Made by a program: the position numbers and the translations under genes. From NCBI GenBank assembly GCA_050245995.1, contig JBFWWV010000004.1:234104-298103 (forward strand): 64,000 nt of DNA. Direction: 5' to 3'. The notes under the pieces were generated by a model that searched no databases, was not told where the DNA came from, and worked only from the letters and a program-made list of their open reading frames with translations. The stretch is from Planctomycetota bacterium (GTDB taxonomy: Bacteria > Planctomycetota > UBA1135 > UBA2386). Shown one piece after another: positions 5,012 to 53,482 of this stretch. Position 1 is the stretch's first letter. Every line of letters starts with the position of its first letter.

Positions 5012-5114
5012 CCGGGTCGCCGGCGCGCGCGGGCTCTTCGTCGGGACCTACTTTGCAAAGCAAAGCCAAGGGCGCTAGCATGCGCCCGCGGCGCGGTCGT
5101 GGGCGGCCGCCGAG

Positions 5115-7796: not shown

Positions 7797-7828
7797 ACTG
7801 GCGCTGAACTGCCGGTGATCCGGCGCGG

Positions 7829-8764: not shown

Positions 8765-8793
8765 AGCGACGCGCGCCGGCGGTTCGCCGGCGA

Positions 8794-11103: not shown

Positions 11104-11258
11104 GAGCTGGAGCCGGCGCCGCGGTCGGCCGCCGGACCGTGCAGCGTAGCGGCTCGCGGCGCCGTCATCGAGGCATCCCGCCCGGCTGCTGTGCGCCCGC
11201 GACGAACTCGTCGCATCCGCGGTCGGCGCCGTTCCGCGCGCGTAGCGGCAAGGCGCCG

Positions 11259-20540: not shown

Positions 20541-20624
20541 TGCGGTCGGCCAGCACCCCTGCGGTCCGTTCTCCCGTCGGACGGACGGGATCCGAGGACC
20601 GCTCGCGCCTATCCTGCCGACCCA

Positions 20625-34234: not shown

Positions 34235-34793
34235 GGTCGAGCTCCCGCTGCAGGAACGCGCGCGCCGTGCGCCAGCCGCGCTTGATCGTCGCCGTCGACA
34301 CGCCGAGCGCTGTGGCGGTGTCGTCGACGCCGAGGCCGGCCAGGAAGCGCAGCTCGACGATCCGGTGCAGCGCGGGGTCGACGCGCTGCAGCCGTTCGAG
34401 CGCCGCGTCGAGCCGCAGCACGCGGTCGTCGCGCGCCGCGTCGTCGCCCGGCGCCTGCTCCGCGGCCGCGGCCAGCGCCGCGCTGCGCGCGCGCCGGCGG
34501 CGGGCGCCGTCGACCAGCGCGCGCCGCATGACGGTCGCCACCAGCGCGAAGAACTGCGCGCCGTCCGCGCAGTCCGGCGCAGCGCCCCGCAGCCGCACGA
34601 ACGCGTCGTGCACCAGCGCCGTCGGCGAGAGCGTGTGCCCGGCGCCCTCCTGCGCCAGCCGCCGCCGCGCCAGCGCACGCAGCTCCTGGTGCAGCCGCGC
34701 GAACAGCTCGCCGTGCGCCGTCGCCGACCCGGCGCGCCAGGCGCGCAGCAGTTCGGGCACGGAGCGCCCGGCGGTGGGGGTCGTCGTCGCCAT
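34227..34793 (-). CDS. ECF-subfamily RNA polymerase sigma-70 factor
   Basis: Real part of track ORF 34227..35063 from M91 (MATTTPTAGRSVPELLRAW). Sigma2 region ELFARLHQELRALARRRL...ALVHDAFVRL. Sigma4 VELRFLAGLGVDDTATALGVSTATIKRGWRTARAFL. Confidence 0.85.
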   Translation of the reverse strand: MATTTPTAGRSVPELLRAWRAGSATAHGELFARLHQELRALARRRLAQEGAGHTLSPTALVHDAFVRLRGAAPDCADGAQFFALVATVMRRALVDGARRRRARSAALAAAAEQAPGDDAARDDRVLRLDAALERLQRVDPALHRIVELRFLAGLGVDDTATALGVSTATIKRGWRTARAFLQRELDHD

Positions 34794-34858
34794 CGGCGGC
34801 GCGAGCGTAGCACGAAGGCCGCGGGGCGAGGAGCCGCCCGCCGCCGCCAGGGGGCGCG

Positions 34859-38375: not shown

Positions 38376-40565
38376 ATGGAGTCGATGCGGGCGAAGGGTC
38401 TGGCGTGGATGCTGGTCGCGGCGAGCGTGACGGCGCAGGAATGGGTGCCGTTGCGCGTGCGGCACTCGGGCAGCTGCGCGTTCGACGTCGCCCGGCAGCG
38501 CACGGTCCAGTTCGACGCGTTCCGTGGCACGGCGGAGTACGACGGCGAACGCTGGCGGGTGGTGACGACCGCGCACGCGCCTTCACCGCGCGCGCGCCCG
38601 CTGCTCGCGTACGACCTGCTGCGCTTCCGCGTGGTGCTGGTCGGCGGTCAGAACGGGCAGGACCTGCGCGACACCTGGGAGTACGACGGCAGGGACTGGC
38701 GCGAGGTGCCGGGCGCGCTGCTGCCGGCGGGCGTCGCCGAAGGGAACGCCGCCGCGGCCTACGACGCGACGCGGGCGCGGCTGGTGTTGCTGCACCTGGA
38801 CCGGACGCTCGAGTACGACGGCACCCGGTGGCTGTCGATTGCTGTGCCGCATCGCCCGCCGGCTCGCCTTTCCCCCGCGTTGGCGTCCCTCGGCGACGGG
38901 CGCACGCTGCTGTTCGGCGGCGAGGATCCGACCTCGCAGTACTACCCGCCGTACTTCGACGACACCTGGGTGTACGACGGCAGCGACTGGAGTCCGGTCG
39001 CGACCGCCGTCGCGCCGGAGGCGCGCGGGTCGCATCGAATGGCGTACGACGCCGGCCGCGACCGCGTCGTGCTCTACGGCGGCGTGACCGTCGACGGCGC
39101 GGCGCCGCCGATTGCCTGGGAGTTCCACCGCGGGGCGTGGCACGCGGTGCCGCAGGCAGAAGGGCCCCCCGGTGCGTCGCAGATGGTGTACGCGTGGGGG
39201 CGCGGCGGGGTCGAGGTGGTGCTGGACCGGCCGGACGACGAACCGGAGGTGTGGCGCTTCGACGGCGGCGCGTGGACGCGGGATCGGGAGGCGGACTTCC
39301 CGAGCGCGCGCAATGGGCATTCGATGGTGTTCGACCCCGTGCGACGGACGACGTGGCTGGTCGGCGGGTTCTCGTCGGCCACGCTGGACTACACGTGGTT
39401 CGGCGACACCTGGGCGTTCGCACGCGGACGCTGGTGGCCAGTGCAGACGTCCGGGTTGCCGGGCGGCAGGAGGGGAGCCGGGGCGGCCTTCGACCCGACC
39501 ACGGGCAACACGATCCTGTTCGGCGGGATGACCGACATCTGGTGGCCGACCGGCGAGACCTGGAGCTTCGACGGCACCCGCTGGACGCTGCTGCCGCAGG
39601 CGAACGCGCCGTTCGCGCGCGCCGGGCACGCGATGGCGACCGACTTCGGCCGCCGTCGCATCGTGCTGTTCGGCGGCACCGCCGGCCTGAGCCTCACGCT
39701 GGCGGACACCTGGGAGTTCGACGGCAGTCGCTGGCAACAGATGGCGCCAGTCGAGTCGCCGTCCCCGTACGGCGAGTGCACCATGACCTACGACGCGGGG
39801 GCCGCACGCGTGCTCGCCTACGCCGGCGCCGACTGGGCACCCGGCGGCCGGGGCACCTGGAGCTACGACGGGGTCACCTGGCGCCGCGTGCCGGGTGCCG
39901 ATCAGCCGGCGACCCCGCTCAGTGCGTTCGCAATGACCTACGACGCGCACCGCGGTCGCGCGCAGTTGCTGACCGACGCGCTGTGGGAGTTCGATGGTCG
40001 GCGATGGCAGCAACTGGCGCCCAGCGAGGCCGGGCCCCGGCTGGAGCAGTTCACGTTCGTCTGGACGGCGGACGACGGTACGCAGCGCTTCGGCGGCTCG
40101 TTCTACGGCTCGCCTCCGATCGGCGATCATTGGCAGTGGCGCCCGTCTCCGCACAGCACCTGGACCCGCCGCGGCGCCGGCTGCGCCCGCGCGGGCTTCG
40201 TGCCGACGCTCGACGCGGCGGCGCCGCCGGCCAGCGTGCTCGGCGCCGTGCACGAGGTGCGGCTCGCGGCCGGCGACGCCGACCTCGCCGTGGTCGTGAC
40301 CGGCTTGGACCCGATTCAATGGAACGGGACCGCGCTGCCGGTGTCGCTGCTGCCGTCCGCGCCGCAGTGCAAGCTGTGGATCGCGCCCGAGCTGGGGGCC
40401 CGCCTGCTGCCGCTGCAGGGCGGCCGCGGAGTCGTTCCTTTGGCGATCCCGGCCGATCCGGCGCTGGCCGGCGGCGTGCTGTGCCTGCAGGCGCTGACCT
40501 TCGACAGCGCGCTCGGCGCGGCGTCGCTGGCGACCAGCAACGCGGGCGTGCTGCGGACCCACTGA
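38376..40565 (+). CDS. secreted Kelch-repeat beta-propeller protein (galactose-oxidase-like central domain) with C-terminal ~110-aa Ig/E-set-like domain
   Basis: SD AAGGAGG 7 nt before ATG. Signal MESMRAKGLAWMLVAASVTAQE. Repeated Kelch blades (W.YDG..W, LFGG motifs). C-terminal GC...PQCKLW...LQALTFD...SNAGV domain shared with 42938..45211 and 62050..64000. Confidence 0.8.
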   Translation: MESMRAKGLAWMLVAASVTAQEWVPLRVRHSGSCAFDVARQRTVQFDAFRGTAEYDGERWRVVTTAHAPSPRARPLLAYDLLRFRVVLVGGQNGQDLRDTWEYDGRDWREVPGALLPAGVAEGNAAAAYDATRARLVLLHLDRTLEYDGTRWLSIAVPHRPPARLSPALASLGDGRTLLFGGEDPTSQYYPPYFDDTWVYDGSDWSPVATAVAPEARGSHRMAYDAGRDRVVLYGGVTVDGAAPPIAWEFHRGAWHAVPQAEGPPGASQMVYAWGRGGVEVVLDRPDDEPEVWRFDGGAWTRDREADFPSARNGHSMVFDPVRRTTWLVGGFSSATLDYTWFGDTWAFARGRWWPVQTSGLPGGRRGAGAAFDPTTGNTILFGGMTDIWWPTGETWSFDGTRWTLLPQANAPFARAGHAMATDFGRRRIVLFGGTAGLSLTLADTWEFDGSRWQQMAPVESPSPYGECTMTYDAGAARVLAYAGADWAPGGRGTWSYDGVTWRRVPGADQPATPLSAFAMTYDAHRGRAQLLTDALWEFDGRRWQQLAPSEAGPRLEQFTFVWTADDGTQRFGGSFYGSPPIGDHWQWRPSPHSTWTRRGAGCARAGFVPTLDAAAPPASVLGAVHEVRLAAGDADLAVVVTGLDPIQWNGTALPVSLLPSAPQCKLWIAPELGARLLPLQGGRGVVPLAIPADPALAGGVLCLQALTFDSALGAASLATSNAGVLRTH

Positions 40566-40693: not shown

Positions 40694-41602
40694 CTACTGA
40701 CCCCGCGGCACCGTTGCCGCGGCGTCGACGTGCCGCCGCACCAGCTCCGGGATCATGTACAGGCAGTCGACGTGGATGCCCGGCGTCGCCTCGTCGAACG
40801 TGTACAGGTGGAACCCGCCGACGTGGCACTCCGCCGCGATGGGCACGCCGCGCTCCGTGAACGCGCGGCTCGGTTCGCGCGCGCCGGCGACGCTGGCGAG
40901 CACGAGGTCGGCGCACTCGGCGGTCGACGCGTAGTCGGTCGGGTACATGCCGTGCGCGAGCACGAACGTCTTGTCGCCGCGCGCGGCGGCCTGGGCGAAC
41001 CGCAGGAAGTCGACCATCTGCTCGGCCTCGGGCGCGCGCACGTCCGCGGCGACGACCGACGCGTAGATCGAGTCGGCCGACACCAGCGCGGTGATGCGTT
41101 CGAAGAACTCGGGCTCCTTCAGCAGCTCGCGCACCGCGCCGTAGCCGGCGCTGAAGAACGTGATCAGGATCGGGCCGAAGCGCACGTCGCGGCCGCAGCG
41201 CCGCGACAGCTCGCGTTCGCCGGCCGCGAGCAGCGCGCGGAACGCGGCGGGGTCGCGGTAGGGCGCCGTGAACGCGCTCGACCGGCCGCTCAGCCTGCTG
41301 GCGAGCAGCACGCCGGTGCGCCGCATGCGCGCGAAGTTCTCCTCGGCGATCTGCACGCCGCCCTGGAAGTGCACCGCCAGCGGCACGTGGTCGCCCGCGG
41401 GCGGGACGAAGTCCTCGGGCACGAACAGCACGGCGTCCGGCAGCTGCGTGCGGTCGCCGCGCGCCAGCCGTTCGAGCTGGCTCAGCGCCGACGGCAGTCG
41501 CTCTGGCGAGGCGCTCGCCGCGGGCGCGGGCGCTGGTGCGGCGGCGCAGGCGCCCAGCAAGGCGAGGCAGGACCACGGCAGCAGCGAACTCCGCGTCGGC
41601 AT
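40694..41602 (-). CDS. hypothetical lipoprotein
   Basis: 302 aa. Signal plus lipobox MPTRSSLLPWSCLALLGACAAAP. No confident domain assignment (possible alpha/beta-hydrolase-like, FFSAGYGAV). Confidence 0.6.
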   Translation of the reverse strand: MPTRSSLLPWSCLALLGACAAAPAPAPAASASPERLPSALSQLERLARGDRTQLPDAVLFVPEDFVPPAGDHVPLAVHFQGGVQIAEENFARMRRTGVLLASRLSGRSSAFTAPYRDPAAFRALLAAGERELSRRCGRDVRFGPILITFFSAGYGAVRELLKEPEFFERITALVSADSIYASVVAADVRAPEAEQMVDFLRFAQAAARGDKTFVLAHGMYPTDYASTAECADLVLASVAGAREPSRAFTERGVPIAAECHVGGFHLYTFDEATPGIHVDCLYMIPELVRRHVDAAATVPRGQ

Positions 41603-41730
41603 GCCGCGACTATCGCGACCCGGTCGGTCGGGCGGAAGCGCGTTCGGGACGCCGCCGGTACGCCGCGACCGCCGCGCTCGGGCAGCCCGGCGGGTATCGT
41701 GGCCGGCTCGCCCCGAACCCGGAGGTCCTC

Positions 41731-42915
41731 ATGTCGCTGCGTCGTCTCGCCGTTCCGTTCGTGTCCGTCCTGCTGCTCCCCCTGGCGTTGGCCCAGGACC
41801 CAGTCGACGCCGCCGGCGGCGGCGAGGTTGCCAAGGTGCGGGCGCTGTTCACCGCGTTCACGACCGCGCGCGACACGGCGCGCGACCAGCAGCGGCCGCT
41901 GATGCAGCAGCTGCGCGAGGTGGAGCGCGGCAGCGACGAGTACAAGGCGCTGGTGGCGAAGCTCACCGCGCTGCGCGGCTCGGTCGAGGCGCCGCAGACG
42001 GCGTTCGAGACCGCGTTCGCGGCCGGCGACTGGAGCGCCTTCGACCGCGAGGCCGACGGCGACCTGCTGCAGACCGGCCTGCAGGCGGCCGCCCGCGACC
42101 TCGACGCCGACCCCGAGCGGGCGCTGCGCGCGTGCCGGATGTTCCTGGACGCGTTCGCCGGCGACCGCGCCGCCGGCTCGATCCGCGGCACCGCGCTGCC
42201 GAACGCGCTGCTCGCCTGCGGCGACGGCGACGAGGCCGCCGCGGCGGCGCAGGCGGCCGCCGACGCCGCCGATGGCGTCGCCAAGGCGCGCGCGTTGTTG
42301 ACCGTCGGCGACATCGCCGCCGCGCGCGGCGACGCGACCGCGGCGGCGGCGCGCTACGCCGAGGCCGAGGCGCTCGCCGACGAGCGCACGATGGGCTACG
42401 TCACGCTGCGCAAGGAGCTGATCGGCAAGCCCGCGCCCGACATCCGCAGCGACCAGTGGATCGGCGCCGACGCGTCGTCGCTCGCGCAGCAGCAGGGCAA
42501 GGTCGTGCTGGTCGACTTCTGGGCGACGTGGTGCGGTCCGTGCCGCCACGTGATGCCGGCGCTCGACGCGATGTACCGCGAGAACCGCGAGCGCGGCCTG
42601 CAGGTGATGGGCGTGACCCGATTCTACGAGCGCGGCTACCTGCCGGCCGACAGCACTGAGATGCAGAGCGGCGGCGCCAGCGTCGACGGCATGACGGCGG
42701 AGACCTTTCCCGACCACGTGCGCGCGTTCCGCGACCACACGGGCATCTCGTACCCGTTCGTGATCGCCGCCGAGGACGACTTCAAGGCCTACCACGTGCG
42801 CGGCATCCCGACGCTGGCGGTGGTCGACCGCGACGGCAAGGTCGCGCTGGTCACCGTCGGCAGCGGCAGCGAGGCGCTGCTGAAGTTCGCGGTCGAGCGG
42901 CTGCTGGCCCAATGA
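41731..42915 (+). CDS. TlpA-like thioredoxin-fold thiol:disulfide oxidoreductase (WCGPC) with N-terminal TPR-like helical extension
   Basis: Track ORF 41536..42915, start at M66, GGAGG 6 nt upstream. Signal MSLRRLAVPFVSVLLLPLALAQD. Thioredoxin domain VVLVDFWATWCGPCRHVMPALDAMYRENRERGLQVMGVT...GIPTLAVVDRDGKV. Confidence 0.85.
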   Translation: MSLRRLAVPFVSVLLLPLALAQDPVDAAGGGEVAKVRALFTAFTTARDTARDQQRPLMQQLREVERGSDEYKALVAKLTALRGSVEAPQTAFETAFAAGDWSAFDREADGDLLQTGLQAAARDLDADPERALRACRMFLDAFAGDRAAGSIRGTALPNALLACGDGDEAAAAAQAAADAADGVAKARALLTVGDIAAARGDATAAAARYAEAEALADERTMGYVTLRKELIGKPAPDIRSDQWIGADASSLAQQQGKVVLVDFWATWCGPCRHVMPALDAMYRENRERGLQVMGVTRFYERGYLPADSTEMQSGGASVDGMTAETFPDHVRAFRDHTGISYPFVIAAEDDFKAYHVRGIPTLAVVDRDGKVALVTVGSGSEALLKFAVERLLAQ

Positions 42916-42937
42916 AGGCGGCCGCAGTGGGGCGGTG

Positions 42938-45211
42938 TCAGTAGGGCCGCAACGCCAGAGCGTTGGTGATCGCCGCGATCCCGAACGGCGCGTTCGGGTC
43001 GAGCGCCGCAGCCTGCAGCCCGAACACCCGCCCGGTGAGTTCGGGCAACGCGGGGATCGACAGGAGCAGCGTCGCGGTGCCACCGCCGTGGGCCTGGGTC
43101 CAGCGCAGGTCGGCCGGCACCCAGAGCGCGCAGGTCGGCGATGGCCCGTCGATCGGTAGCGGCAGCGGGTGGCCGCGCCACGCGTGCAGGCCGCCGCCGA
43201 GCGCCAGGCCGAGCACGCCGGCCGCGGCGGGCAGGTCGCGCAGGTGCAGGGTCAGCGTCGTTCCGAGCGACGGGCCGGCGTCGGGCACCGCGGTCTCGAG
43301 CACCGGCACCGTGACGCCGGCGGCGGCGCAGCCGGCGCCGAGCGGTCGGGCGGTCGGCGTCGGTGCCGGTGCCACGAACGCAGCCACCGTACCCAACTGC
43401 ACGACCTGGCCGCGGCGCGGGTCGAACGCGAGGGCGCGTTCGCGTTCGCCGCTGAGGAGCGGAACCACCGAGATCGGCACTGGCGCGTCGATCCGCCGAT
43501 TCCAGGTGCCGCCGTCGAAGGACCACAGATCGTCCTTCCATCCCGATTGGAAGCGCGTGCCGCCCGACATCATGAGGCGCGCGAGGGCTGCGTCGAACAC
43601 CATGCTGTGCCGGTACACCGTCGGGCCGCCTGCCGCGGGCAGCTCGCGCCATGCGCTGCCGTCGAACTCCCAGGTGTCGCCGAGGACTCCGACCTCGATG
43701 GGGCCGATGCCGCCCTGGAGCAACGTGCTGCCGCGAACCGGATCGAAGCCCATCGCATGCAGTCGGCGTGCCGTTGGCGCCGCGCCCGCGATCGCGACCG
43801 GCCGCCAGGCATCGCCGTCGAACTCCCAGGTGTCGGCCAGCACGTGACCCGGGCCACTGCCGCCGAACAGGACGACTCGATGGCGTCGGCTGTCGTAGAC
43901 CATCGAGTGCTGGTGCCGCGGCACCGGCGGGGGACTGCGACGGTCCAGCACCGGCCTGCGCCACCCGATGCCGTCGAACTCCCAGGTGACGTCGGAGGGG
44001 AAGGACGGCGGCGCGTGTCCGCCGAACAGGACCATCCGGCGCCGCCGCGTGTCGTAGACCATGGCGACGCCCGTCTGCACGGACGGACCCGGTCCGGGGA
44101 ACACCGTCCAGGTGTCCTCGACTCCTTCGAGGGTGGCGAGGTTCGCCTGTGGGTCGAGGCCGACGGCGACGAACCGCTCGCGGGCTGCGTCATAGGCCAT
44201 CGCGATCGGTGCGATGGGGACCTGCGGCCGCAGTTGCGACCACGAGGCGCCGACCAACGCGGTGGTCGCGCCGGTGTTCGGGCCGGCCATGGGGCCGCCG
44301 GCGACCCGGACCAATCGGTGGGTGTTGCGGTCGAACTCGATCCTCGCGGTGTCCTGGGCTACGACGCTGGTCGTGGTTGTGCTGTGCCAGGACCCGTCGA
44401 AGGACCACAACGTGTCCGGGTCCGGGGCGCCGATCGTCCGCACCTGCAGCGTCGACCAGTCGAAGCACATGCTCGCGGACAGGCTGGTGCGCGCCGGCGG
44501 CGCCACCTGGGTCGGGACCTCCGCCCACCCGGCTTCGAGGAGTCGCCACGTCTCGGTCGAGGCCCCGCCGCCGAACAGGACCATCTGGTCGCGAACCACG
44601 TCGTAGGCCATCAACGCGTCGGTGCGCGGACCCGGCGAGACGACGGTGTGCAGCGCGCGCCAGCGGGTGCCGTCGAAGACCCAGGTGTCGGCAATCGCCG
44701 TCGGCAGACCCGACCTGCCGCCGAACAGGACGGTGCGGCCGCGGGTGAGGTCGAAGGCCATCGCCGCCCCGGTGCGCGCACTCGGGCCGGGGCTCGCCGC
44801 GGTGGTCGCCGGATGCCAGTCGCGCCCGTCGAACTCCCAGGTGTCGCCGAGGAGCAGCCGGCTGCCGGAGGTGCCGCCGAACAGTACGACGCGATCGCGC
44901 CACCAGTCGTAGCACATCGAGTGACCGAAGCGTGGCGGTGGGTTGCCGATGCCATCCGGGCGGCGCCACAGCGAGTCTTCGAGGATCCAGGTGTCCGTCA
45001 GGTTGGCGGTGCTCGACAGCGAATTGCTGCCGCCGAACATGATCACGGCACCGCCCGGGGCGTGGCACACGGCGTGGCCCATTCGCGGCGGCGGGATCAG
45101 TCCCCGCCACTGCTGTGCGGCGACCGGCCGGCCGGTTGCGAGCGTGAGCAGGGTCTCCAGGCCGAGCAAGAGCACCGCCGGGAGCCGGGGCACACCGAGC
45201 CTCTTCACCAT
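42938..45211 (-). CDS. secreted Kelch-repeat beta-propeller protein, paralogue of 38376..40565
   Basis: 757 aa. Signal MVKRLGVPRLPAVLLLGLETLLTLATG. Kelch blades (VLFGG, DTWEFDG repeated). C-terminal GCAAAG...PTCALWVP...LQAAALD...TNALAL domain. Confidence 0.8.
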   Translation of the reverse strand: MVKRLGVPRLPAVLLLGLETLLTLATGRPVAAQQWRGLIPPPRMGHAVCHAPGGAVIMFGGSNSLSSTANLTDTWILEDSLWRRPDGIGNPPPRFGHSMCYDWWRDRVVLFGGTSGSRLLLGDTWEFDGRDWHPATTAASPGPSARTGAAMAFDLTRGRTVLFGGRSGLPTAIADTWVFDGTRWRALHTVVSPGPRTDALMAYDVVRDQMVLFGGGASTETWRLLEAGWAEVPTQVAPPARTSLSASMCFDWSTLQVRTIGAPDPDTLWSFDGSWHSTTTTSVVAQDTARIEFDRNTHRLVRVAGGPMAGPNTGATTALVGASWSQLRPQVPIAPIAMAYDAARERFVAVGLDPQANLATLEGVEDTWTVFPGPGPSVQTGVAMVYDTRRRRMVLFGGHAPPSFPSDVTWEFDGIGWRRPVLDRRSPPPVPRHQHSMVYDSRRHRVVLFGGSGPGHVLADTWEFDGDAWRPVAIAGAAPTARRLHAMGFDPVRGSTLLQGGIGPIEVGVLGDTWEFDGSAWRELPAAGGPTVYRHSMVFDAALARLMMSGGTRFQSGWKDDLWSFDGGTWNRRIDAPVPISVVPLLSGERERALAFDPRRGQVVQLGTVAAFVAPAPTPTARPLGAGCAAAGVTVPVLETAVPDAGPSLGTTLTLHLRDLPAAAGVLGLALGGGLHAWRGHPLPLPIDGPSPTCALWVPADLRWTQAHGGGTATLLLSIPALPELTGRVFGLQAAALDPNAPFGIAAITNALALRPY

Positions 45212-45272
45212 GACGGCAGATCGTCCGCGGGGTCGCGGATCGCGTCAAGGCGCGCCGCGCACGGCGTCGCCT

Positions 45273-46085
45273 TCAGTCCGCTCGCGTGCGCAGCCACCCC
45301 GCCAGCACGCCGATCGGCAGCGGCAGCAGCGCCACCAGCAGCATCAGCGCGGCCACCGTCTCGAGCCGGCAGTGCCACAGGTCCTGCGCCAGCACGAGGT
45401 AGTCGTTCTTGATGCCGAGCGAGCCGTTGCCGGCGTAGTGCGCGCGCGCCGCGGGGCTGGTCATCAGGCCGAAGCAGAGCTGCACGTTGCGCGCCTGCAC
45501 GATGGCGCCGGCCATCGCCGCGGCGGTGCGCTCCTGCGGCGTGTCGGTGCGGCCGCCGGTCCACGCCAGCGCGAAGCAGTAGGTCGCGAACGCCAGCTCG
45601 CCCAGGTGGCCGCCGAGCGTGATCGCGACGTCGGCAGCGCGCGACAGCGCCAGCGCCGGCAGCAGCAGCGCGGTGGCGCCCAGCGCGATCGCGGCGACCG
45701 TGCGACGACGGCGCAGGCACAGGGCTCCGCCGCCGAGCGCCAGCAGCGCCATCGTCCACACCAGCCAGCCGCGTTGCGCGGCGATGCCGGTCCACGCCTC
45801 GCCGCGCAGGCTGATCGCCGGCGCCGACGGGTGGCCCAGCAGGCAGCCGACGGTGGCGTGACCCATCTCGTGCGGGATGGCGCACAGCACCCACGAGAAC
45901 ATCGACGGCAGCACCAGCGTCAACGGCCACGCCAGCGCGATGCCGAGGCCGAGCCAGCGCCAGCGCGCCGGCGGGTCGAGGTCGAACGACCGCCGCGGCG
46001 CCTCGGGCGGCGGCGCCGGCAGGTCCTGGTCGTCGAGCCGCGGCGGCGCGAACCGCGAGCGCGGGGGCTGCAGGGAGCTGGCCAC
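45273..46085 (-). CDS. Peptidase M50B-like integral-membrane zinc metalloprotease (HExxH in TM helix)
   Basis: 270 aa, ~6 TM. HEMGH lies inside the predicted TM helix SWVLCAIPHEMGHATVGCLLG (site-2-protease-like arrangement). Sits between the sigma-fusion gene and the Kelch gene on the same strand. Confidence 0.6.
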   Translation of the reverse strand: MASSLQPPRSRFAPPRLDDQDLPAPPPEAPRRSFDLDPPARWRWLGLGIALAWPLTLVLPSMFSWVLCAIPHEMGHATVGCLLGHPSAPAISLRGEAWTGIAAQRGWLVWTMALLALGGGALCLRRRRTVAAIALGATALLLPALALSRAADVAITLGGHLGELAFATYCFALAWTGGRTDTPQERTAAAMAGAIVQARNVQLCFGLMTSPAARAHYAGNGSLGIKNDYLVLAQDLWHCRLETVAALMLLVALLPLPIGVLAGWLRTRAD

Positions 46086-46139
46086 CTGCGTGCATCGACC
46101 GCGGCAGCGGTGGCCCTTGATCGCCGCCTCGCGGGACCC

Positions 46140-49100
46140 TCAGTCGGCGCGCGGGATGTCGACCGTCGACGGCGCGTCGAGGTCGGGTCCGCATTCGAAC
46201 GCACCGCGGTAACGGACCATGCCGTCGCGGGTGGCCTCGACGTCGTAGCGGCCGAACGCGAACACCTGCCGCATGCCCCAGTATCGGAACCCGCGCAGGT
46301 CGGCGCGCAGCGCGGTCACGGTGCACTCCGCGGCCACCGTTCCGTCGGTCGCGCGCACGGTGACCTGCAGCGGCGTGTCGCGCTCGGGGTGGTCCTGGCC
46401 GTCGCCGTTGAAGGTCAGCGTGCGGGTGCGGCCGATGGTCAGCGGGACCCGCAGCGCGGTCTCGGTCCCGGCCGCGAGCGTGACGGTGAGGTCGGGCGCC
46501 AGCAGGTCGGTGGCGTTGACGGTCACGCGGTAGGCCCCGGGCACCGCGCGCACGCGCAGGTCGCCGGCCGCGAACGTGTGTTCGCACGCGACCTCCAGGC
46601 CGGCCGCGTCCCACAGCCGCAGGCCCGGCGGGTCGCCGCGCCACGGCCGCCCGTCGGCGTGCACCAGCTCCGCGACCAGCGCGCCGGTGGCCGGCAACGC
46701 GATCGTGCCGCAGTCGTGCGCGCGGCCCGCGTCGAGCGGCACCGGCGCCCCGAGCGGTTGCTCGTAGCCGCCGACCCGACAGGTCAGCGCGAACGTCCCG
46801 CCGCTCAGGCCGGCGAACGCGAAGTCGCCGTTCGCGTCGGTCCTGGCGGTGCGGTGATGGTCGCTGTCGCGGTGCGTGAGCGTGAGGGTGCGCGCGTCGA
46901 ACGGCGCGCCGTCCCCCCGCACCACGCGCCCGCGGATGGTGCCCGACGGCAGCCGGTGTGCCGGCACCACCAGTTCCAGCGGCCCGCCGACGCCGATCCC
47001 GTCGATCGCGATCGCCGGCGCGTCCGGTGCCTCGGGCGGCGCCGCCGCGACGGTGCGCAGGGTGCCGGCGGGCGGCCGCAGCCGGAAGCTGCCGTCGGCG
47101 TTGGTCTCGGCCGTGGTCGCTCCTCCGTCGGCGGCCACGGCGGTGACGCGCCAGTCGTCGAGCCCGCGGCCGGTCGGGTCGACGACGCGGCCGCGCAGCA
47201 GCAGCGCATCGACGACCAGGTCGCAGACCAGCGGCCCCGCCGGCGGATCGACGAACTCGCGCGACGCGGCGACCCGGCCTGCGACCAGCGCCACCACGGT
47301 GAACGTCTGCTGCGGCTGGTAGGGCAGCCAGAACGAGCCGTCCGGCCGCGTGCCGCACTGGCTCCAGTGCCCGTCCTCGTCGCGCGAGCGACGCGACTCG
47401 ACCATCGCGAGCATCGGCGCGCCGGCCGCCGTGCGCACGCTGCCGCGCACGCCGACGCCGGCGGGCAGGTCGAGCGCGACCGCGGCGTCTTCGCCCGCCC
47501 GCAGCTCGACCTCGACCCCGTCCGGGCAGTGCGGCCACGCCGATGCGCCGACGCGCGCGCGGCCGGGGGCGAGGCCTTCGAAGCGGAAGCGACCGTCGGC
47601 GTCGGTGCGCCGATGCCGCGGCACGCGACCCGCGAGCAGCGTGCCGTCGGCGTCGCGCCGGCTGTCCTGTTCGCTCGGCGTGACGGTGACGACGGCACCC
47701 GCGACCGGCGCGCCGGTGGCGTCGCGGACGACTCCGTCGATGCCTGCGGCGACGCGGCCGAGCACCAGTCGGACGTCCGCGCCGCGGCCGTTGACGAACC
47801 GGGCCCGCGAGTCGGCGTGGCCGGAGCAGCTCGCGGCGACGCGGCTCTCGCGTGGGTCGGCGGTGGCGATCGCGAACCGGCCGTCCGCGCCGCTGCGGCC
47901 GGCGCGGCGGCTCACGAGCTCGGCGGGCTCGGGCAGCGAGTAGCGGCCCATCGCGGTGCCGCGCATCAGCCACAGATCGGCGCCGGCCACCGGGGCACCG
48001 TCGGCGTCGACCACCTGGCCGCGCAGCACCTGCACCGCGGGGCGCACCAGCCGCACCTCGGTGACGGCGCCACTCTCGACCTGCGCCGGCCGCCCGTCCG
48101 TGTGCTCCACCGGCATCGACACGTGCCAACGGCCGGGCGCGAGGTCGGTGAGCTGCACGAGGCCGTCGTCGTCGGCCACGAAGTGCGCCGCGCCGTCGTC
48201 GAACGGCTGCAGCGGATCGCCGCCGCGCCACACCACGATCTGGGTCCCGGGCAACGGCAGCTCATGGCCCTCGGCGGTGCTGGCCAGCGTCCGGATCACC
48301 AGCGTGCCCGTGGTCGCTACGCGCGGGGCGTCCGCCGCGTGGCGCACCGCGGCGTCCCGTGCGCGGGTCGCCTCGGCGGCGCGCGCGGCGTCGGCCGGTC
48401 CGCCGCCGCCGGCGGTCGCGGCGATCGGCGGGGTCGGGTCGGCTGGCGTGCCGAGCGTCTGCCAGAGCAGGCCGCAGCACAGCAGCACGGCGAGGGCGCA
48501 GAGCAGCTTGTTGGTCACGAGCGAACCTCCGATCAGGGAGACGGTCCCCGCCGCGGCGAGCGGCGTCGCGGGAGTCGGTGCGCCGGGGACCGGTCGTGCG
48601 GCGCCGGCGCGCAGCACCGCCTCGCGCACCGCGTCCAGGCCGCGCGGCGCGCCCGGCGGCAGCGCGAACGCGGCCAGTCCCGCCGGCGCCCGGCGGCGCA
48701 GCGCCTCGAGCCCGCGGTGGATGCGCATGCGCACGGTGCCGGGCGGGATCGCCAGCACCTCGGCGATCTCGGCGGGGCTCATCCCGTGCTGCAGCTGCAG
48801 CAGCAGCGCCTGCCGCTGCTCGGTCGGCAACGCATCGACGTGCGTGCGCAGCCAGGCCACGACCTCGCCGCGCGCGGCCGCGTCGGCCGGGTCGATCGCG
48901 TCACCGCCGAGCTCCGGGATCGCGTCGGCACGGCGGCGGCGCGCGTCGCGGCGCGCGTTGCGCGCCACGTTGGTCAGCAGTCCGGCCAGCCACGGCTCCA
49001 GCCGGCGCGCGGCGTCGAACACCGCGGCGCGTTCGATCGCCAGCAGGAACGTCTGCTGCACCGCATCCTCGGCGTCGGCGTGCCCGCACAGGTGCAGCGC

Positions 49101-49211
49101 CACCGGCAGCAGCCGCGGCGCCAGCGCGTCGAACACAGCCGCCAGGGCGTCGAGGTCGCCCTCGTCGCGGAAGCGGGCGAAGCGTCTGGCGTGCGGGTCC
49201 ATGCGCCCCAT
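46140..49211 (-). CDS. ECF sigma factor fused to a transmembrane anti-sigma-like C-terminal region with carboxypeptidase-regulatory-like repeats (membrane-tethered sigma factor)
   Basis: Track ORF 46140..49364. Start at M52 (MGRMDPHARRFARF); 49202 is the alternative. N-terminal sigma2/sigma4: EDAVQQTFLLAIERAAVFD...AEIAEVLAIPPGTVRMRIHRGLEALRRR. Then a TM LLCALAVLLCCGLLW. About 750 aa of repeated CarD_reg-like beta-sandwich modules follow (VLRGQVVDADGAPVAGADLWL, GVVRDATGAPVAGAVVTV, TDADGRFRFEGL, TNADGSFRL). A single uninterrupted frame. Confidence 0.7.
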   Translation of the reverse strand: MGRMDPHARRFARFRDEGDLDALAAVFDALAPRLLPVALHLCGHADAEDAVQQTFLLAIERAAVFDAARRLEPWLAGLLTNVARNARRDARRRRADAIPELGGDAIDPADAAARGEVVAWLRTHVDALPTEQRQALLLQLQHGMSPAEIAEVLAIPPGTVRMRIHRGLEALRRRAPAGLAAFALPPGAPRGLDAVREAVLRAGAARPVPGAPTPATPLAAAGTVSLIGGSLVTNKLLCALAVLLCCGLLWQTLGTPADPTPPIAATAGGGGPADAARAAEATRARDAAVRHAADAPRVATTGTLVIRTLASTAEGHELPLPGTQIVVWRGGDPLQPFDDGAAHFVADDDGLVQLTDLAPGRWHVSMPVEHTDGRPAQVESGAVTEVRLVRPAVQVLRGQVVDADGAPVAGADLWLMRGTAMGRYSLPEPAELVSRRAGRSGADGRFAIATADPRESRVAASCSGHADSRARFVNGRGADVRLVLGRVAAGIDGVVRDATGAPVAGAVVTVTPSEQDSRRDADGTLLAGRVPRHRRTDADGRFRFEGLAPGRARVGASAWPHCPDGVEVELRAGEDAAVALDLPAGVGVRGSVRTAAGAPMLAMVESRRSRDEDGHWSQCGTRPDGSFWLPYQPQQTFTVVALVAGRVAASREFVDPPAGPLVCDLVVDALLLRGRVVDPTGRGLDDWRVTAVAADGGATTAETNADGSFRLRPPAGTLRTVAAAPPEAPDAPAIAIDGIGVGGPLELVVPAHRLPSGTIRGRVVRGDGAPFDARTLTLTHRDSDHHRTARTDANGDFAFAGLSGGTFALTCRVGGYEQPLGAPVPLDAGRAHDCGTIALPATGALVAELVHADGRPWRGDPPGLRLWDAAGLEVACEHTFAAGDLRVRAVPGAYRVTVNATDLLAPDLTVTLAAGTETALRVPLTIGRTRTLTFNGDGQDHPERDTPLQVTVRATDGTVAAECTVTALRADLRGFRYWGMRQVFAFGRYDVEATRDGMVRYRGAFECGPDLDAPSTVDIPRAD

Positions 49212-49338
49212 CCTTGTCCGGCGGCCGCCGGCCGTCACCGCCTTCCGGTCGAAAGGCGGCCGCGCTGCCGCCGGCGCGGCGTCGCCGGTTGCCGCCGCGG
49301 CGCCCGGTCCGCATGATCGCCGCCCTGCCGTGGAACGA

Positions 49339-50130
49339 ATGCCTGTCGACACGACGAGACGCAAAGCGGCGCTGGCGCTGGCGGCGCTGCTGCTCGCCGC
49401 CGGCGGCGGCGACGAGTTCGCGCGCGGCGCGCGCGCCTACGCGGCCGGCGACTTCGCGGCGGCGCAGGCCGCGTTCGCGGCGGCGGTCGCGGCGCGCGGC
49501 TCGGACGCGCCGGCGGCGCTGCACTTCGACCTGGGGCTGGCGGCGCTGCGCGCCGGCGACCTGCGCGCCGCCGCCTCGGCGCTGGCGGCGGCGCAGGACG
49601 GCGGCCGCGGCGACGCGGCGCTGCTGCGGCAGGTGGCATTCGCGGCGGGTCACGTGGCCTTCGCGCGCGGCGAACGGCTGGCGCGGCTGGCGCAGCAGCC
49701 GGAGGCCGAGCCGTTCGTCTACGAGCGCGCGATCGAGGCGCTGGCCGCGGCGCGCACGCACTGGGTCGAGGCGGTGCTCGGCGAGGGCGACTGGCCGGCC
49801 GCGCGCCGCAACGCCGAGCGCGCCCAGCAGCGGCTCGACCAGGTGCGGCTCCTGCAGCAGCAGCGGCTCCAGCAGAACCGCAGCACCGGCGCGCAGCAGC
49901 GGCCGATGCTGCTGCCCGGGCAGGACCCGGGCGACGATCGCGGCGACGGCCAGGGCGGCGGCGCGCCGACCGACACCGCGCCGAATCCGCTGCAGGCCAA
50001 CGACGCGCAGCTGTCCGCCGCCGCGGTCGCCGAGCTGTTCGCGGTGCTCGAGCAGAAGGAACGGGAGAAGCGCGCGCTGCGCCGGGCGCAGCGGCGCGCC
50101 GGCGACGCCGCGGTGGAGCGCGACTGGTGA
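49339..50130 (+). CDS. TPR-like helical protein (BatC-like)
   Basis: Last 263 aa of track ORF 47956..50130 from MPVDTTRRKAALALAALLLAAGGG. Ala-rich TPR-like helices. Basic, coiled C-terminus. Confidence 0.55.
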   Translation: MPVDTTRRKAALALAALLLAAGGGDEFARGARAYAAGDFAAAQAAFAAAVAARGSDAPAALHFDLGLAALRAGDLRAAASALAAAQDGGRGDAALLRQVAFAAGHVAFARGERLARLAQQPEAEPFVYERAIEALAAARTHWVEAVLGEGDWPAARRNAERAQQRLDQVRLLQQQRLQQNRSTGAQQRPMLLPGQDPGDDRGDGQGGGAPTDTAPNPLQANDAQLSAAAVAELFAVLEQKEREKRALRRAQRRAGDAAVERDW

Positions 50131-51557
50131 GGCGCGCGCCGCGCGCCGCCCTGGTCGCCGTGCTGGGCCTCGCCGCGCTGGCGGCGCAGGACCGCGCGTT
50201 CGTGCGCGTCGACGCGCCGGACGCCGTGGTGCAGGGCCAGGTGTTCGCCGTGCGCGTCACCGTCGGCGTCGAACGCGCCGTGCTCCCGAAGCTGGTGCAG
50301 CTGTTCCGCCGTGAGCTCGACGTGCCGGTGCAGGTGACGGCGCCGTGGCTCGACGGCACGCGCGCGCTGCCGCGGTTCGCGGGCGCCGCGGCGGGGTCGC
50401 CGGCGGGATCGTCGGCTGTCTCTCCGGTTGGGCCGGTGCTGGCGCTGGCCGGCGACGCCGCGGTCGCGACCGCGGTCGACGACGTCGCGCGCGACGGGCG
50501 CACGTTCGCGGTGTGGACCGTCGATCGCCGGCTGCTGGCGCGCGAACCCGGCGCGCACGAGCTGCTGGCGCCGCAGCTGCGGTTCGCGTTCGCGACGCAG
50601 TTCCGCGACGACTTCGTCAACGGCCGCGTCGCGCTCGACCGCACCGACGTCAGCGTCCCCGGCGCGCCGGTCACCGTCACCGTGCGGCCGCTGCCGACCG
50701 AAGGGCGGCCGGCGCAGTTCACCGGCGCGGTCGGCGAGTTCACGGTCGAGGCCGAGGCCCGGCCGCGCGAGCTGGCCGTCGGCGAGCACCTCGAGCTCAC
50801 GGTGCGCGTGCGCGGCGACGGCGACCTGCGCGGGTTCGCGCCGCCGCAGCTCGCCCTGCCCGGGCTGCACGCGTTCGGCGTGCTCGACGGCGGGGTCGAT
50901 GGCGACGCGCGCGTGCTGCGCTACGACCTCGTGCCGACGACGAGCGCGGTCGACGCGGTGCCGCCCGTCGCGTTCGCGTTCTACGCGCCGGGTGTCGGCT
51001 ACCGCGAGGTGCGCACGGCCGCGATCCCGCTGCAGGTGCGGCCGGCGGCGGCCGGTGGCGACGGGAACGGCGCGGCGCGGCCGGTCGAGGTCACGACCCG
51101 GGCACCCGGGCTCGCCGACATCTTCGCCAGCGGCGAGCTGCCGCGCGACGGCGGGCGCACCGGCTCCGCGTTCGCGGCGGCGGCGCTGCTGCTGCCGTGG
51201 GCCGTGGCCCTGGCGCTGCTGGCCCTGCGCCGGCCGCGCGCCGCGCGTGGGGCGACGACCGCCGCGCCGCGCGAGCTCGCGGCCGCGTTCGCCCGCGCCG
51301 CCGAGTCGCGGCACGTGGACCTGCTGTCGGCGTTCGACGCCTACGTCACCGCGCGCCTGGGCTCGCCGCCCGCGGCGGACGCGCTCGCGGCGCGCCTGCA
51401 CGCGCTCGGCGTGCCGGCCGACCTCGCGCAGCGCGCCGGGCGCCTGCGCCGCAGCCTCGAGGCCGCCCGCTACGGCGGCGTGTCCGCCGGCGCCGCCGTC
51501 GCCGCCGACGACGTGGTGCGCGCGCTCGAGCAGCACTTCGAAGGGGGCACGTCGTGA
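50127..51557 (+). CDS. BatD-like protein (signal peptide, extracytoplasmic domain, C-terminal TM anchor)
   Basis: GTG overlapping the upstream stop. Signal MRRAPRAALVAVLGLAALAAQD. C-terminal TM AFAAAALLLPWAVALALLAL followed by a cytoplasmic tail. Confidence 0.6.
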   Translation: MRRAPRAALVAVLGLAALAAQDRAFVRVDAPDAVVQGQVFAVRVTVGVERAVLPKLVQLFRRELDVPVQVTAPWLDGTRALPRFAGAAAGSPAGSSAVSPVGPVLALAGDAAVATAVDDVARDGRTFAVWTVDRRLLAREPGAHELLAPQLRFAFATQFRDDFVNGRVALDRTDVSVPGAPVTVTVRPLPTEGRPAQFTGAVGEFTVEAEARPRELAVGEHLELTVRVRGDGDLRGFAPPQLALPGLHAFGVLDGGVDGDARVLRYDLVPTTSAVDAVPPVAFAFYAPGVGYREVRTAAIPLQVRPAAAGGDGNGAARPVEVTTRAPGLADIFASGELPRDGGRTGSAFAAAALLLPWAVALALLALRRPRAARGATTAAPRELAAAFARAAESRHVDLLSAFDAYVTARLGSPPAADALAARLHALGVPADLAQRAGRLRRSLEAARYGGVSAGAAVAADDVVRALEQHFEGGTS

Positions 51558-52252
51558 GCCGCGCGCGCCATGTGGGCGCGCTGGCCGCACTCGCGGTGAC
51601 CCTGCTGGCGACCCTGCCGGCGACGCTTCCCGCGCAGGGCGACCCGATCGAGCGCGCCGAGCGCGCCTACCGGCTCGGCGACTTCGCGGCGGCGCGCGCG
51701 CAGTATGCGGCGGCGCTGCAAGGCGAACGCGACCACCGCGCCGCACTGCTGCACAACCTCGGCAACTGCGAGTACCAGCTCGGCGAGTTCGCCGCCGCTG
51801 TGTGGAGCTGGCGGCGCGCGCTGCGGCTCCGGCCGGGCGAGCTGCGCACCCTCGCCAACCTGCTGCTCTGCGAGAACGCGGACCTCGGCGTCGACAATCC
51901 GGCACCGGACGGCGGGGGTGGCGCCCGGCCGTTCTGGCTGTGGACGAGCGCCGTTGCGGTGCTGGCGGGCGCGTGGCTGGCGCGGCGCCGGCGCGCCGCG
52001 GCGACGTGCGCGTTCGCGCTGGGCCTCGGCTGCGGCGCGACCGCGGCGGTGCAGCAGTGGGGGCCGGCCCCGCGTCTCGCCGTGGTCCTGGAGGCGGTGC
52101 CGCTGCAGGACGCGGCGACCGCGGCGCCGCTGCGACCGGGGGAGGTCTGGACCGTGCTCGACATCGCAGGCGAACGCGTGCACGTGCTGCGCGGCGATCG
52201 CACCGGCTGGGTCGGGCGCGCCGCCGTCGGGATCGTCGACACCGTCGAGTAG
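51554..52252 (+). CDS. TPR + SH3b-like domain protein (BatE-like)
   Basis: C-terminal 232 aa of track ORF 50345..52252 from VSRARHVGALAALAVTLLATLPATLPAQ (GTG overlapping the upstream stop). TPR ERAYRLGDFAAARAQYAAAL...NLGNCEYQLGEFAAAVWSWRRAL. TM. SH3-like C-terminus VWTVLDIAGERVHVLRGDRTGWV. Confidence 0.6.
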   Translation: MSRARHVGALAALAVTLLATLPATLPAQGDPIERAERAYRLGDFAAARAQYAAALQGERDHRAALLHNLGNCEYQLGEFAAAVWSWRRALRLRPGELRTLANLLLCENADLGVDNPAPDGGGGARPFWLWTSAVAVLAGAWLARRRRAAATCAFALGLGCGATAAVQQWGPAPRLAVVLEAVPLQDAATAAPLRPGEVWTVLDIAGERVHVLRGDRTGWVGRAAVGIVDTVE

Positions 52253-52324
52253 CGCCACAGCGGCCGCGGCCCGTGGCTCAAGCCGGGCCGCGCCGACGCC
52301 CGAAACCCAGGCGTGGCGATCCTG

Positions 52325-53482
52325 ATGGCATCGGGCCGGGCCGACGATCCGCAGGCGGTGATCGCCGGGCGCCGCGCGGCCGAGCAGTGCCGCGACCAGC
52401 TCCAGGGCTGGCCGCCGCGCCTGCTGCTGCCGTTCGTCGCGCCGGACCTCGACCACGACGCCGTGCTGCGCGGCATCGGCGAGGTGTTCGGCGCTGCGCC
52501 GCGGATCGGCTGCACGACGGCGGCCGCCTACACGCGCGACGGCAGCGCCGGCGTCGCGTTGACCGCGCTGGCCGGCGCCGACCTGCGCGTGCGCACCGGC
52601 AGCGGCTCGCACCACGGCGACGAGGTCACCCGGGCTGCGGCGCAGGCGACGCTGTCGTTCGCGCGCCGCGCCGACGGCGACCTCGACCCGCGTTGGACCG
52701 GCCGCACGCTGCTGGTGTTCGTCGCCGGCCGCGCCGACAGCGACGCGCTGCTGCACGAGCTGCGCGCGCGCACCGGCGCGCACTACCAGGTGTTCGGCGG
52801 CCTCGCCGCCGGCGAACGGCGCCGCGCCGCGGTGTTCGCCGGCGATCGCGCGCTGCGTTCGGGCTTCGCCTGCGCCGAGATCCTGTCGGCGCGGCCGTTC
52901 CGCGTGGCACAGGGCCACGGCTTCGCGCCGGTCGGCGCCGCGTTGCGGGTCAGCGCCGCGCGCGGCCCGTGGCTGCAGCAGCTCGACGACCGGCCGGCGT
53001 GGACCGTCGTTCAGGAACAGCTCGGGCGCGCCGCCGCCGCCACCGCATCGCCGGACGCGCTGCCGGCCGACCTGCTGCTCGGCGTGCGTCGCGGCCCGGG
53101 CCACGAGCTGCGGGTGCCGCTGCAGCGCCGCGAGGACGGCAGCCTGCGGCTGAGCCAGCCGGTGCTGCCGGGCGACGTCGTGCAGTGCATGCGCGCCGAT
53201 CGCGACCGCATGCTCGACGCCGGCCAGCAGGCGGTGCAGGCGGCCGTGCAGGAGGGGCGCGGCGAGGGCGCCGCCCGCTGGGCCGGCGCGCTGGTGGTCG
53301 AGTGCCCGACCACCCAGGGGGTGCTCGGCCCCGCGTTCGCCGACCACGTCGACCGCACGCTGCAGGCGCTCGAGGCGCGCGCCGTCGCGATCGGCACCGT
53401 CCAGGGCGGGTTCGCGTCGTGCGACGGCGCGGTGCTGGCGCCCTGCGACGCCGGCTCGCTGGTGTGCCTGGTCCCGGCCTGA
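52325..53482 (+). CDS. FIST (N and C) sensory domain protein
   Basis: Track ORF 52313..53482 (GTG); ATG at M5 chosen. FIST_N and FIST_C architecture with no output domain. Confidence 0.6.
   Translation: MASGRADDPQAVIAGRRAAEQCRDQLQGWPPRLLLPFVAPDLDHDAVLRGIGEVFGAAPRIGCTTAAAYTRDGSAGVALTALAGADLRVRTGSGSHHGDEVTRAAAQATLSFARRADGDLDPRWTGRTLLVFVAGRADSDALLHELRARTGAHYQVFGGLAAGERRRAAVFAGDRALRSGFACAEILSARPFRVAQGHGFAPVGAALRVSAARGPWLQQLDDRPAWTVVQEQLGRAAAATASPDALPADLLLGVRRGPGHELRVPLQRREDGSLRLSQPVLPGDVVQCMRADRDRMLDAGQQAVQAAVQEGRGEGAARWAGALVVECPTTQGVLGPAFADHVDRTLQALEARAVAIGTVQGGFASCDGAVLAPCDAGSLVCLVPA

Follow-up and report, generated by a model that had tools for sequence, protein, structure and literature searches.

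Extracytoplasmic function (ECF) sigma factors that are themselves tethered to the membrane are the least studied means by which an outside signal can be linked to transcription, with biochemistry only for IutY and, in part, for SCO4117. IutY of Pseudomonas putida (ECF243) is a sigma/anti-sigma hybrid that undergoes sequential proteolysis by Prc and by the site-2 protease RseP, neither of which has been described as a dedicated IutY partner (PMC8999054; PMC5411451). The actinobacterial groups ECF48, ECF52 and ECF53 (e.g. SCO4117) have extensions containing transmembrane helices, and their activation by proteolysis has been proposed (PMC8999054). Finally, the multi-copy ECF57 factors, which are enriched in planctomycetes, have very long C-terminal extensions of the WD40 type (PMC7826278, PMC8999054, PMC8567305). 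Here, we analyze a 64,000-nucleotide stretch of DNA from a Planctomycetota bacterium of the UBA2386 lineage (contig JBFWWV010000004.1, positions 234,104 to 298,103; hereafter, the window) and, in particular, a gene at 46140-49211 encoding a membrane-anchored ECF sigma factor fused to a large extracytoplasmic domain. Downstream of it lie a gene for a 270-residue polytopic membrane protein with the motif HEMGH, a putative zinc metalloprotease of an unannotated HExGH family (45273-46085), and a gene for a 757-residue Kelch-repeat protein (42938-45211); these three genes and all features described within and between them are on the minus strand. The original prediction, made from the sequence of the window, was that the sigma fusion is a one-polypeptide switch worked by regulated intramembrane proteolysis, with the neighboring HEMGH protein as its protease. 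The fusion itself withstands our analysis and regulated intramembrane proteolysis stays plausible, whereas a dedicated sigma-protease-Kelch unit does not, as the gene pair is not conserved.

Like IutY, the fusion studied here consists of an N-terminal ECF sigma factor, a single transmembrane helix and an extracytoplasmic C-terminal part. However, IutY has a FecR-type anti-sigma domain and a periplasmic domain and is associated with a TonB-dependent receptor, whereas the present protein has a helix of approximately 25 residues and approximately 770 residues of CarboxypepD_reg modules, and the window proteins that were scanned included no identifiable TonB-dependent receptor. With ECF48, ECF52 and ECF53 it shares a C-terminal extension made of a transmembrane part and an extracytoplasmic domain, which in those groups is of a carbohydrate-binding type. 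Their extensions are up to approximately 400 residues long, with an anti-sigma domain of the zinc-finger (ZAS-like) type and one to two transmembrane helices, while here the zinc finger is absent, there is one transmembrane helix, the extension is roughly twice as long and the host belongs to another phylum. With ECF57 it shares a long, beta-rich repeat extension, built here of CarboxypepD_reg beta-sandwiches and there of WD40 propellers. Sigma factors that do without a separate anti-sigma factor form a class that had already been described in IutY and in ECF48, ECF52 and ECF53 (PMC8999054; PMC5411451). In other words, the one-polypeptide sigma switch is already known, and what is new is the beta-sandwich ectodomain, the helix RGLAAVRxAVL and a CGGTGACG box in the leader of the gene. 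A literature search for an ECF sigma factor with a carboxypeptidase-regulatory extension yielded no relevant paper, and the combination of a CarboxypepD_reg ectodomain, no anti-sigma domain and a short helix is not described in the literature searched. The family is a clean case of tethering, with a single transmembrane helix and one conserved juxtamembrane helix but without a canonical anti-sigma domain, in a phylum whose ECF repertoires are very large and for which genetic tools are few.

Architecture and conservation of the sigma fusion

The open reading frame (ORF) of the fusion encodes 1023 residues, but the actual start is probably ATG 49202, giving 1020 residues, since close orthologues all begin with MDP and an AAGGA lies 8 nt upstream of this codon. 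Sigma-70 region 2 (Sigma70_r2, PF04542; residues 27-93, 48933-49133) is matched in Pfam with 34.2 bits, the cut-off being 24, and region 4 (residues 122-172, 48696-48848) is matched by Sigma70_r4_2 (PF08281; residues 122-171) with 50.2 bits against 25.7, as well as by PF04545 with 33.7 bits, while the general NCBIfam model TIGR02937 (sigma70-ECF) scores 60.4 bits against 42.9. With regions 2 and 4 above their thresholds, only about 30 residues between them, and neither region 3 nor region 1.1, the protein has the composition of an ECF (group 4) sigma factor. The closest NCBIfam ECF subfamilies stay far below their cut-offs (e.g. TIGR02983, 73 bits against 141.6). Moreover, an AlphaFold2 model of the N-terminal 297 residues resembles SigH, SigW, SigL and SigE, with Foldseek E-values down to 3e-6. 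The sole strongly hydrophobic 19-residue segment of the protein spans residues 231-249 (Kyte-Doolittle mean 2.18) and coincides roughly with a helix predicted by AlphaFold2, which together place a single transmembrane helix at about residues 228-250 (48462-48530).

The extracytoplasmic region (residues ~300-1023, 46143-48314) is made of approximately eight tandem CarboxypepD_reg modules of about 90 residues, that is, transthyretin-like beta-sandwiches preceded by a Pro/Ala-rich spacer. The Pfam family CarboxypepD_reg (PF13620) collects 167.8 bits over four stretches, and a repeat hidden Markov model (HMM) built from the protein's own modules finds five strong tandem copies (residues 387-485, 483-581, 578-655, 653-748 and 750-837) and weak ones at residues 265-381, 838-923 and 946-1000. 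A complete ECF sigma module, one transmembrane helix and extracytoplasmic repeats had indeed been foreseen in the original prediction, and, as in sigma/anti-sigma hybrids, the sigma factor, the transmembrane helix and the predicted extracytoplasmic domain reside within one polypeptide. Note that CarboxypepD_reg repeat proteins occur in these genomes both with and without sigma heads (also at loci L017, L021 and L027); in the window, a 905-residue protein at 5079-7796 on the plus strand has a weak CarboxypepD_reg match and no sigma domain.

A search across 5.8 billion proteins at E<=1e-10 returned 152 homologues of the fusion from NCBI, JGI, ENA and Logan assemblies, and most of the 120 homologues listed are 930-1060 residues long and carry both the sigma and the CarboxypepD_reg Pfam families; more than 100 are full-length, with the same length and domain order. 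Forty orthologues align colinearly from the MDP start, through the junction of sigma region 4, linker and transmembrane helix, to a shared C-terminus, with the ectodomain alignable over its full length, and an identical gene is present in a second assembly (L064). Because the 40 sequences are colinear across this junction, a frameshift or an assembly join is excluded: the sigma part and the membrane-repeat part are one gene, and the covalent union of sigma factor and sensor is a conserved design. The fused, membrane-anchored architecture is thus essentially certain, and, on the evidence of these sequences, it is conserved in an uncultured Planctomycetota lineage. The surroundings of the gene are a different matter, as seven loci with fusion orthologues have different neighbors each time and no gene in common. 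A metagenome scan with the fusion alignment was of little use, since the back-translated patterns turned out to be generic ECF motifs, and only L065 and L066 were fusion relatives.

The linker between sigma region 4 and the transmembrane helix, approximately 50 residues in total, contains the element P-A-G-L...R-G-L-A-A-V-R-x-A-V-L (residues 176-199, 48615-48686), which is conserved in the 40 orthologues: P176 is invariant, while A177, R190, G191, A193, V195, R196 and V199 are each conserved in at least 90% of them. AlphaFold2 predicts a helix here, with a mean predicted local distance difference test (pLDDT) score of 95 over a 10-residue block that covers most of it, and scores of 50-66 in the flanks. 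Such a pattern may be what one would expect of a helix packing on the folded sigma domains, and the modeled helix is a candidate for a built-in inhibitory or recognition element. When the model is compared with known structures, the target-normalized TM-scores to anti-sigma-bound sigma factors (range 0.44-0.50; SigW/RsiW 0.49-0.50, SigK/RskA 0.47) are slightly higher than those to sigma factors bound to RNA polymerase (0.32-0.42), although root-mean-square deviations are large, and we take this difference as a hint only. If the linker helix does autoinhibit the sigma domain, engineered transmembrane sigma switches could make use of it as a compact part.

Upstream of the gene, the leaders of the window and of five orthologues (L059, L060, L061, L062 and L145) have an invariant 8-mer, CGGTGACG, at a fixed distance from the start codon, even though the six proteins are only 35-50% identical. 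In the window, the CGGTGACG(G) box lies at 49232-49240 on the minus strand, and the 8-mer ends 29 nt before ATG 49202, while the AAGGA mentioned above belongs to a Shine-Dalgarno-like element, GGACAAGGA (49211-49219), that occurs in five of the six leaders. Judging from this pattern of conservation, the CGGTGACG box is a good candidate for the fusion gene's own promoter or operator. Several of the leaders also contain a partial copy, CCGGTGA or CCGTGA, approximately 20 nt further upstream.

The HEMGH protein and its genomic associations

The HEMGH protein has several hydrophobic helices, and its motif (residues 72-76, 45858-45872) lies next to a hydrophobic segment and inside a predicted helix (residues 61-82). 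The motif is embedded in a helix, as had been claimed and as in M50/M50B proteases, which have HExxH in a transmembrane helix, and it is invariant among close family members. Two further conserved sites could contribute to metal binding. One is a second polar cluster, GHLGE (residues 159-163, 45597-45611), a possible source of a metal ligand, and the other is N227-D228 (45402-45407), in which the invariant D228 is a possible third ligand. In an alignment of 44 sequences, E73, G75, H76, P89, G159, Y217 and D228 are invariant, and H72, H160, E163 and R186 are conserved in at least 90%. The concern, raised along with the original prediction, that the protein might lack a second zinc-ligand motif probably does not apply, because the family keeps both GHxxE and an invariant Asp228 as candidate ligands in addition to HExxH. 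Note that D228 stands in the context G-S-L-G-x-K-N-D-Y, outside the hydrophobic segments and not in an LDG motif, with GHxxE at 159-163 as the alternative source of a ligand.

Similarly to the site-2 proteases of MEROPS family M50 (RseP, SpoIVFB, MjS2P), the HEMGH protein is polytopic, with an HExxH helix followed by a hairpin and with a downstream Asp; unlike them, it has no NxxPxxxLDG-type motif, its Asp being part of a polar KNDY, and no PDZ or CBS domains. The AlphaFold2 model (pLDDT 87) is all-helical except for one beta-hairpin (residues 87-101), which comes directly after the HEMGH helix and is followed by further helices. This order of HExxH helix and beta-hairpin presumably resembles the core of site-2 proteases. 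That said, the description of the protein as M50B-like was not borne out by Pfam: the window protein has no match to Peptidase_M50B (PF13398), and its sole match is to M50 (PF02163), at E=0.016 and with 15 bits, short of the cut-off of 27.2. Among family members, M50 is matched in 5 of 20 and in 4 of 44 sequences, and M50B in 4 of 20 (at E>=0.21) and in 3 of 44, with the best of these weak matches at E=3.8e-6 for M50 and E=2.8e-4 for M50B. What is more, no sequence relative of the family profile was found in the PDB, and a Foldseek comparison with solved site-2 proteases gave no significant match, RseP appearing at an E-value of about 2.3. Going by its sequence and motifs, the protein is a putative polytopic zinc metalloprotease of a remotely M50-like kind, and a remote M50 relative at best.

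The family comprises 80 clusters at 90% identity when only close relatives are counted and 681 clusters at 50% identity when all sequences at E<=1e-3 are included. Being large, unannotated and confidently modeled, it merits definition as a family regardless of any link to sigma factors. Some members (P0080, P0288, P0316 and P0343, among others) are extended at the N-terminus by GYF_2 domains or double zinc ribbons. The N-terminus is in our view therefore cytoplasmic, and the added domains are possibly a regulatory or interaction module.

Is the gene pair conserved? When 185,579 species were scanned, each represented by one genome, this gave 58 loci with HEMGH relatives, nearly all of them in metagenome-assembled genomes (MAGs) of Planctomycetota; the family is also present in MAGs labeled Myxococcota, Verrucomicrobiota and Acidobacteria. 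These loci were queried by tblastn with the sigma domain, the linker-transmembrane region, the ectodomain and the Kelch protein, and a more sensitive screen for fusion-type proteins was run within 6 kb of the HEMGH genes with HMM profiles from 117 family members. Conservation of the pair, which the original prediction itself had named as its test, failed: in the 57 loci screened, no fusion adjoins a HEMGH gene, and the adjacency is observed only in the organism of the window. Elsewhere, the nearest fusion orthologue lies 4.4 kb from HEMGH and is convergent with it (L024). At L034, a protein with sigma domains and a long C-terminal extension is encoded 1.7 kb upstream of HEMGH on the opposite strand, with no CarboxypepD_reg match. 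Conversely, none of the seven fusion-orthologue loci contains a HEMGH gene, and in the MAG DASVAL, which has both, contig 23 carries the fusion orthologue and contig 110 the HEMGH gene.

The neighborhoods of HEMGH genes are, moreover, heterogeneous. Pfam annotation of 55 upstream and 53 downstream neighbors revealed no recurrent sigma family, and the families that were found vary (RNase_T 4, TPPII 3, etc.). A conserved neighbor family was sought within 6 kb on either side, but no family recurs in over 6 of the 52 loci, the recurring ones being multi-domain proteins rich in paralogues; likewise, tblastn with all window proteins showed none of the window genes to be syntenic with the HEMGH loci. 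At 9 of 52 loci, proteins rich in CarboxypepD_reg are encoded within 6 kb of HEMGH; most of them lack a sigma domain, and all orientations occur. Since the 64 kb of the window contain roughly 1-2 such genes, this appears, by a rough estimate, to be close to background density. The locus nearest in content to the window is L063 (region 1-12206), from an ENA MAG labeled Planctomycetota_UBA2386, in which a HEMGH homologue with 66% identity lies between two paralogues of the sigma-transmembrane-CarboxypepD_reg type (864 and 880 residues, on the opposite strand) and near two Kelch genes. The sigma parts of these paralogues, which are analogous architectures in other ECF lineages, have only 24-31% identity to that of the fusion, and the linker motif is absent from them as well as from the L034 protein. 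Because only this one genome has the HEMGH gene next to the fusion, the HEMGH protein is probably not a dedicated partner of the fusion, although it may still be the protease that is used here. The main practical message is in this sense a negative one: adjacency in one genome is insufficient for inferring a dedicated protease-substrate pair.

Proposed release of the sigma domain

We lean, by a little better than an even chance, towards a one-component transmembrane sigma switch in which the sigma factor is freed by the general proteolytic machinery of the cell, with the HEMGH protein not dedicated to this task. In this scheme, the cytoplasmic module of sigma regions 2 and 4 would be held at the membrane by the transmembrane helix, and the conserved juxtamembrane helix may clamp it as well. 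The ectodomain would then be trimmed and the transmembrane segment cut by the cell's machinery for regulated intramembrane proteolysis, and the freed sigma factor would direct RNA polymerase to its regulon, which would probably include the fusion gene itself, by way of the leader with the CGGTGACG box. Single-pass proteins with the N-terminus inside the cell are the type of substrate cleaved by site-2 proteases. Release by proteolysis specifically, for which we argue by analogy with the described systems, has in our estimate slightly less than an even chance.

Three observations count against this scheme. Namely, no FecR, ZAS/zf-HC2 or RskA anti-sigma domain was found between sigma region 4 and the transmembrane helix at a Pfam E-value of 0.01 or better, and, as a recognizable anti-sigma domain is absent there, autoinhibition is a conjecture. 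Furthermore, the window shows no enrichment of the CGGTGACG box, with 13 matches, mostly inside ORFs, against 7.2 +/- 2.6 expected, and for this reason a regulon cannot be defined from it. Finally, L063 holds the closest HEMGH relative on a long contig, and its gene content leaves room for a lineage-specific link between the protease family and such fusions. The L063 cluster may reflect either a loosely associated function or what remains of the common ancestry of a region rich in paralogues, but it does not rescue the operon model.

That model, in which the Kelch protein and/or the ectodomain would sense a signal and the HEMGH protease would cut the transmembrane helix of the fusion, has a number of points to recommend it: the three genes share a strand, lie only 54 nt and 61 nt apart and are not separated by any terminator-like site; HExGH, GHxxE and an invariant Asp are all retained in the HEMGH family, and its HExxH helix with beta-hairpin is presumably like the core of site-2 proteases; some members do reach weak M50 or M50B matches (E=3.8e-6 and 2.8e-4); and at L063, HEMGH is again found amid sigma-CarboxypepD_reg and Kelch genes. 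However, the pair is conserved neither in the 57 HEMGH loci nor in the 7 fusion loci, the L063 fusions are other paralogues (24-31% identity) that have no linker motif and lie on the opposite strand, the HEMGH family extends to MAGs labeled Myxococcota, Verrucomicrobiota and Acidobacteria, and the window protein itself falls under the Pfam cut-off for M50, all of which makes a dedicated, operon-encoded switch unlikely. Somewhat less improbable, and yet still doubtful, is the possibility that the sigma factor is active while tethered, in the manner of ToxR or CadC, with a signal from the ectodomain passing through the transmembrane and linker helices to unmask sigma regions 2 and 4 and to recruit RNA polymerase to the membrane. 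The absence of both a canonical anti-sigma domain and a conserved protease neighbor would fit such a mechanism, as would the high conservation and the confident prediction of the short linker helix, and a linker of about 50 residues could, in principle, give the sigma domain some reach. On the other hand, a tethered active sigma factor is not described in the literature and reviews searched, the characterized fused example, IutY, needs proteolysis (PMC8999054; PMC5411451), and insertion into the holoenzyme some 50 residues from the membrane would presumably be sterically demanding.

Another, more speculative variant, to which we assign a low probability, is a self-contained sigma switch, evolved in this Planctomycetota sub-lineage, in which the RGLAAVRxAVL helix serves as a minimal anti-sigma element, the eight-module ectodomain senses an envelope or polysaccharide cue, and the PDZ-less HExGH protease, of a kind unclassified so far, releases the many sigma-CarboxypepD_reg paralogues in trans. 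If such a trans-acting protease existed, it would explain why the gene is found among fusion paralogues in the window and at L063 and is not strictly linked to them elsewhere. Lastly, one could ask if the fusion is merely an artefact of assembly or a frameshift that joins an ECF sigma gene to a membrane-repeat gene. Nothing speaks in favor of this, and it is raised solely because GC-rich sequence yields long spurious ORFs, while the more than 100 independent homologues from four sources, the colinear junction, the identical gene in L064 and a GC3 (G+C content at third codon positions) of 0.94 over the whole ORF reduce its probability practically to nil. Among these possibilities, it is the one-component switch operated by general proteolysis that we retain as the working model.

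Gene layout and neighboring genes

The window has a base composition of approximately 75% G+C, and long spurious ORFs are consequently abundant in it. The three ORFs are nonetheless found where they had been predicted, and GC3 values of approximately 0.90-0.97 in the fusion, HEMGH and Kelch ORFs are in the range expected of real genes. The spacer between the fusion and the HEMGH gene (46086-46139) is exactly 54 nt long, as originally reported, is in frame and has no internal start codon; the fusion ends with TGA 46142-46140, and the HEMGH gene starts with GTG. The two ORFs share a reading frame, being split by this one TGA and 18 sense codons. Since fusion orthologues end at the same C-terminus, the TGA is a genuine stop, and we regard the shared frame as a coincidence. 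A frameshift or read-through from one ORF into the other was considered and rejected, given that the C-termini of the orthologues agree and that the HEMGH N-terminus (PPRSR...) is kept as that of a separate protein. A scan of 42700-49600 for sigma-70 promoters and intrinsic terminators returned no site of either kind, and, with a gap of 54 nt and no terminator-like site, co-transcription of the fusion and HEMGH genes is possible.

The Kelch gene begins 61 nt downstream of the HEMGH gene. Its product is matched by Pfam Kelch families with up to 175.6 bits and has a hydrophobic, signal-peptide-like N-terminus, which agrees with its description as a secreted Kelch protein. The gene is not a recurring neighbor of either the fusion or the HEMGH gene in other loci and is an unrelated neighbor out of a paralogue-rich family. 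A second Kelch gene is located at 38376-40565 on the plus strand, and the two paralogues, both of approximately 730-760 residues, have an apparently similar, Cys-containing C-terminal region of about 130 residues outside the repeats. Between them are encoded an AhpC/TlpA-type thioredoxin-like protein (41536-42915, plus strand) and a 302-residue protein without a Pfam match (40694-41602, minus strand).

On the other side of the fusion, the divergent genes at 49339-52252 (plus strand) had been described as a BatC/D/E-like cluster. This label is weakly backed: two of the proteins have TPR matches below the cut-off, and the middle one, of 476 residues, has no Pfam match. The window gene at 20541-21572 has homologues at L014 and L016, where relatives of the 476-residue protein are encoded within a few kb of them. 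Beyond this cluster, a sensor-like protein with FIST N and C domains is encoded at 52313-53482 on the plus strand. Finally, the window contains a gene for a 762-residue Ser/Thr kinase (32570-34858, minus strand), paralogues of which are found near HEMGH genes in approximately 10 other loci, probably because kinase families are large in these genomes.

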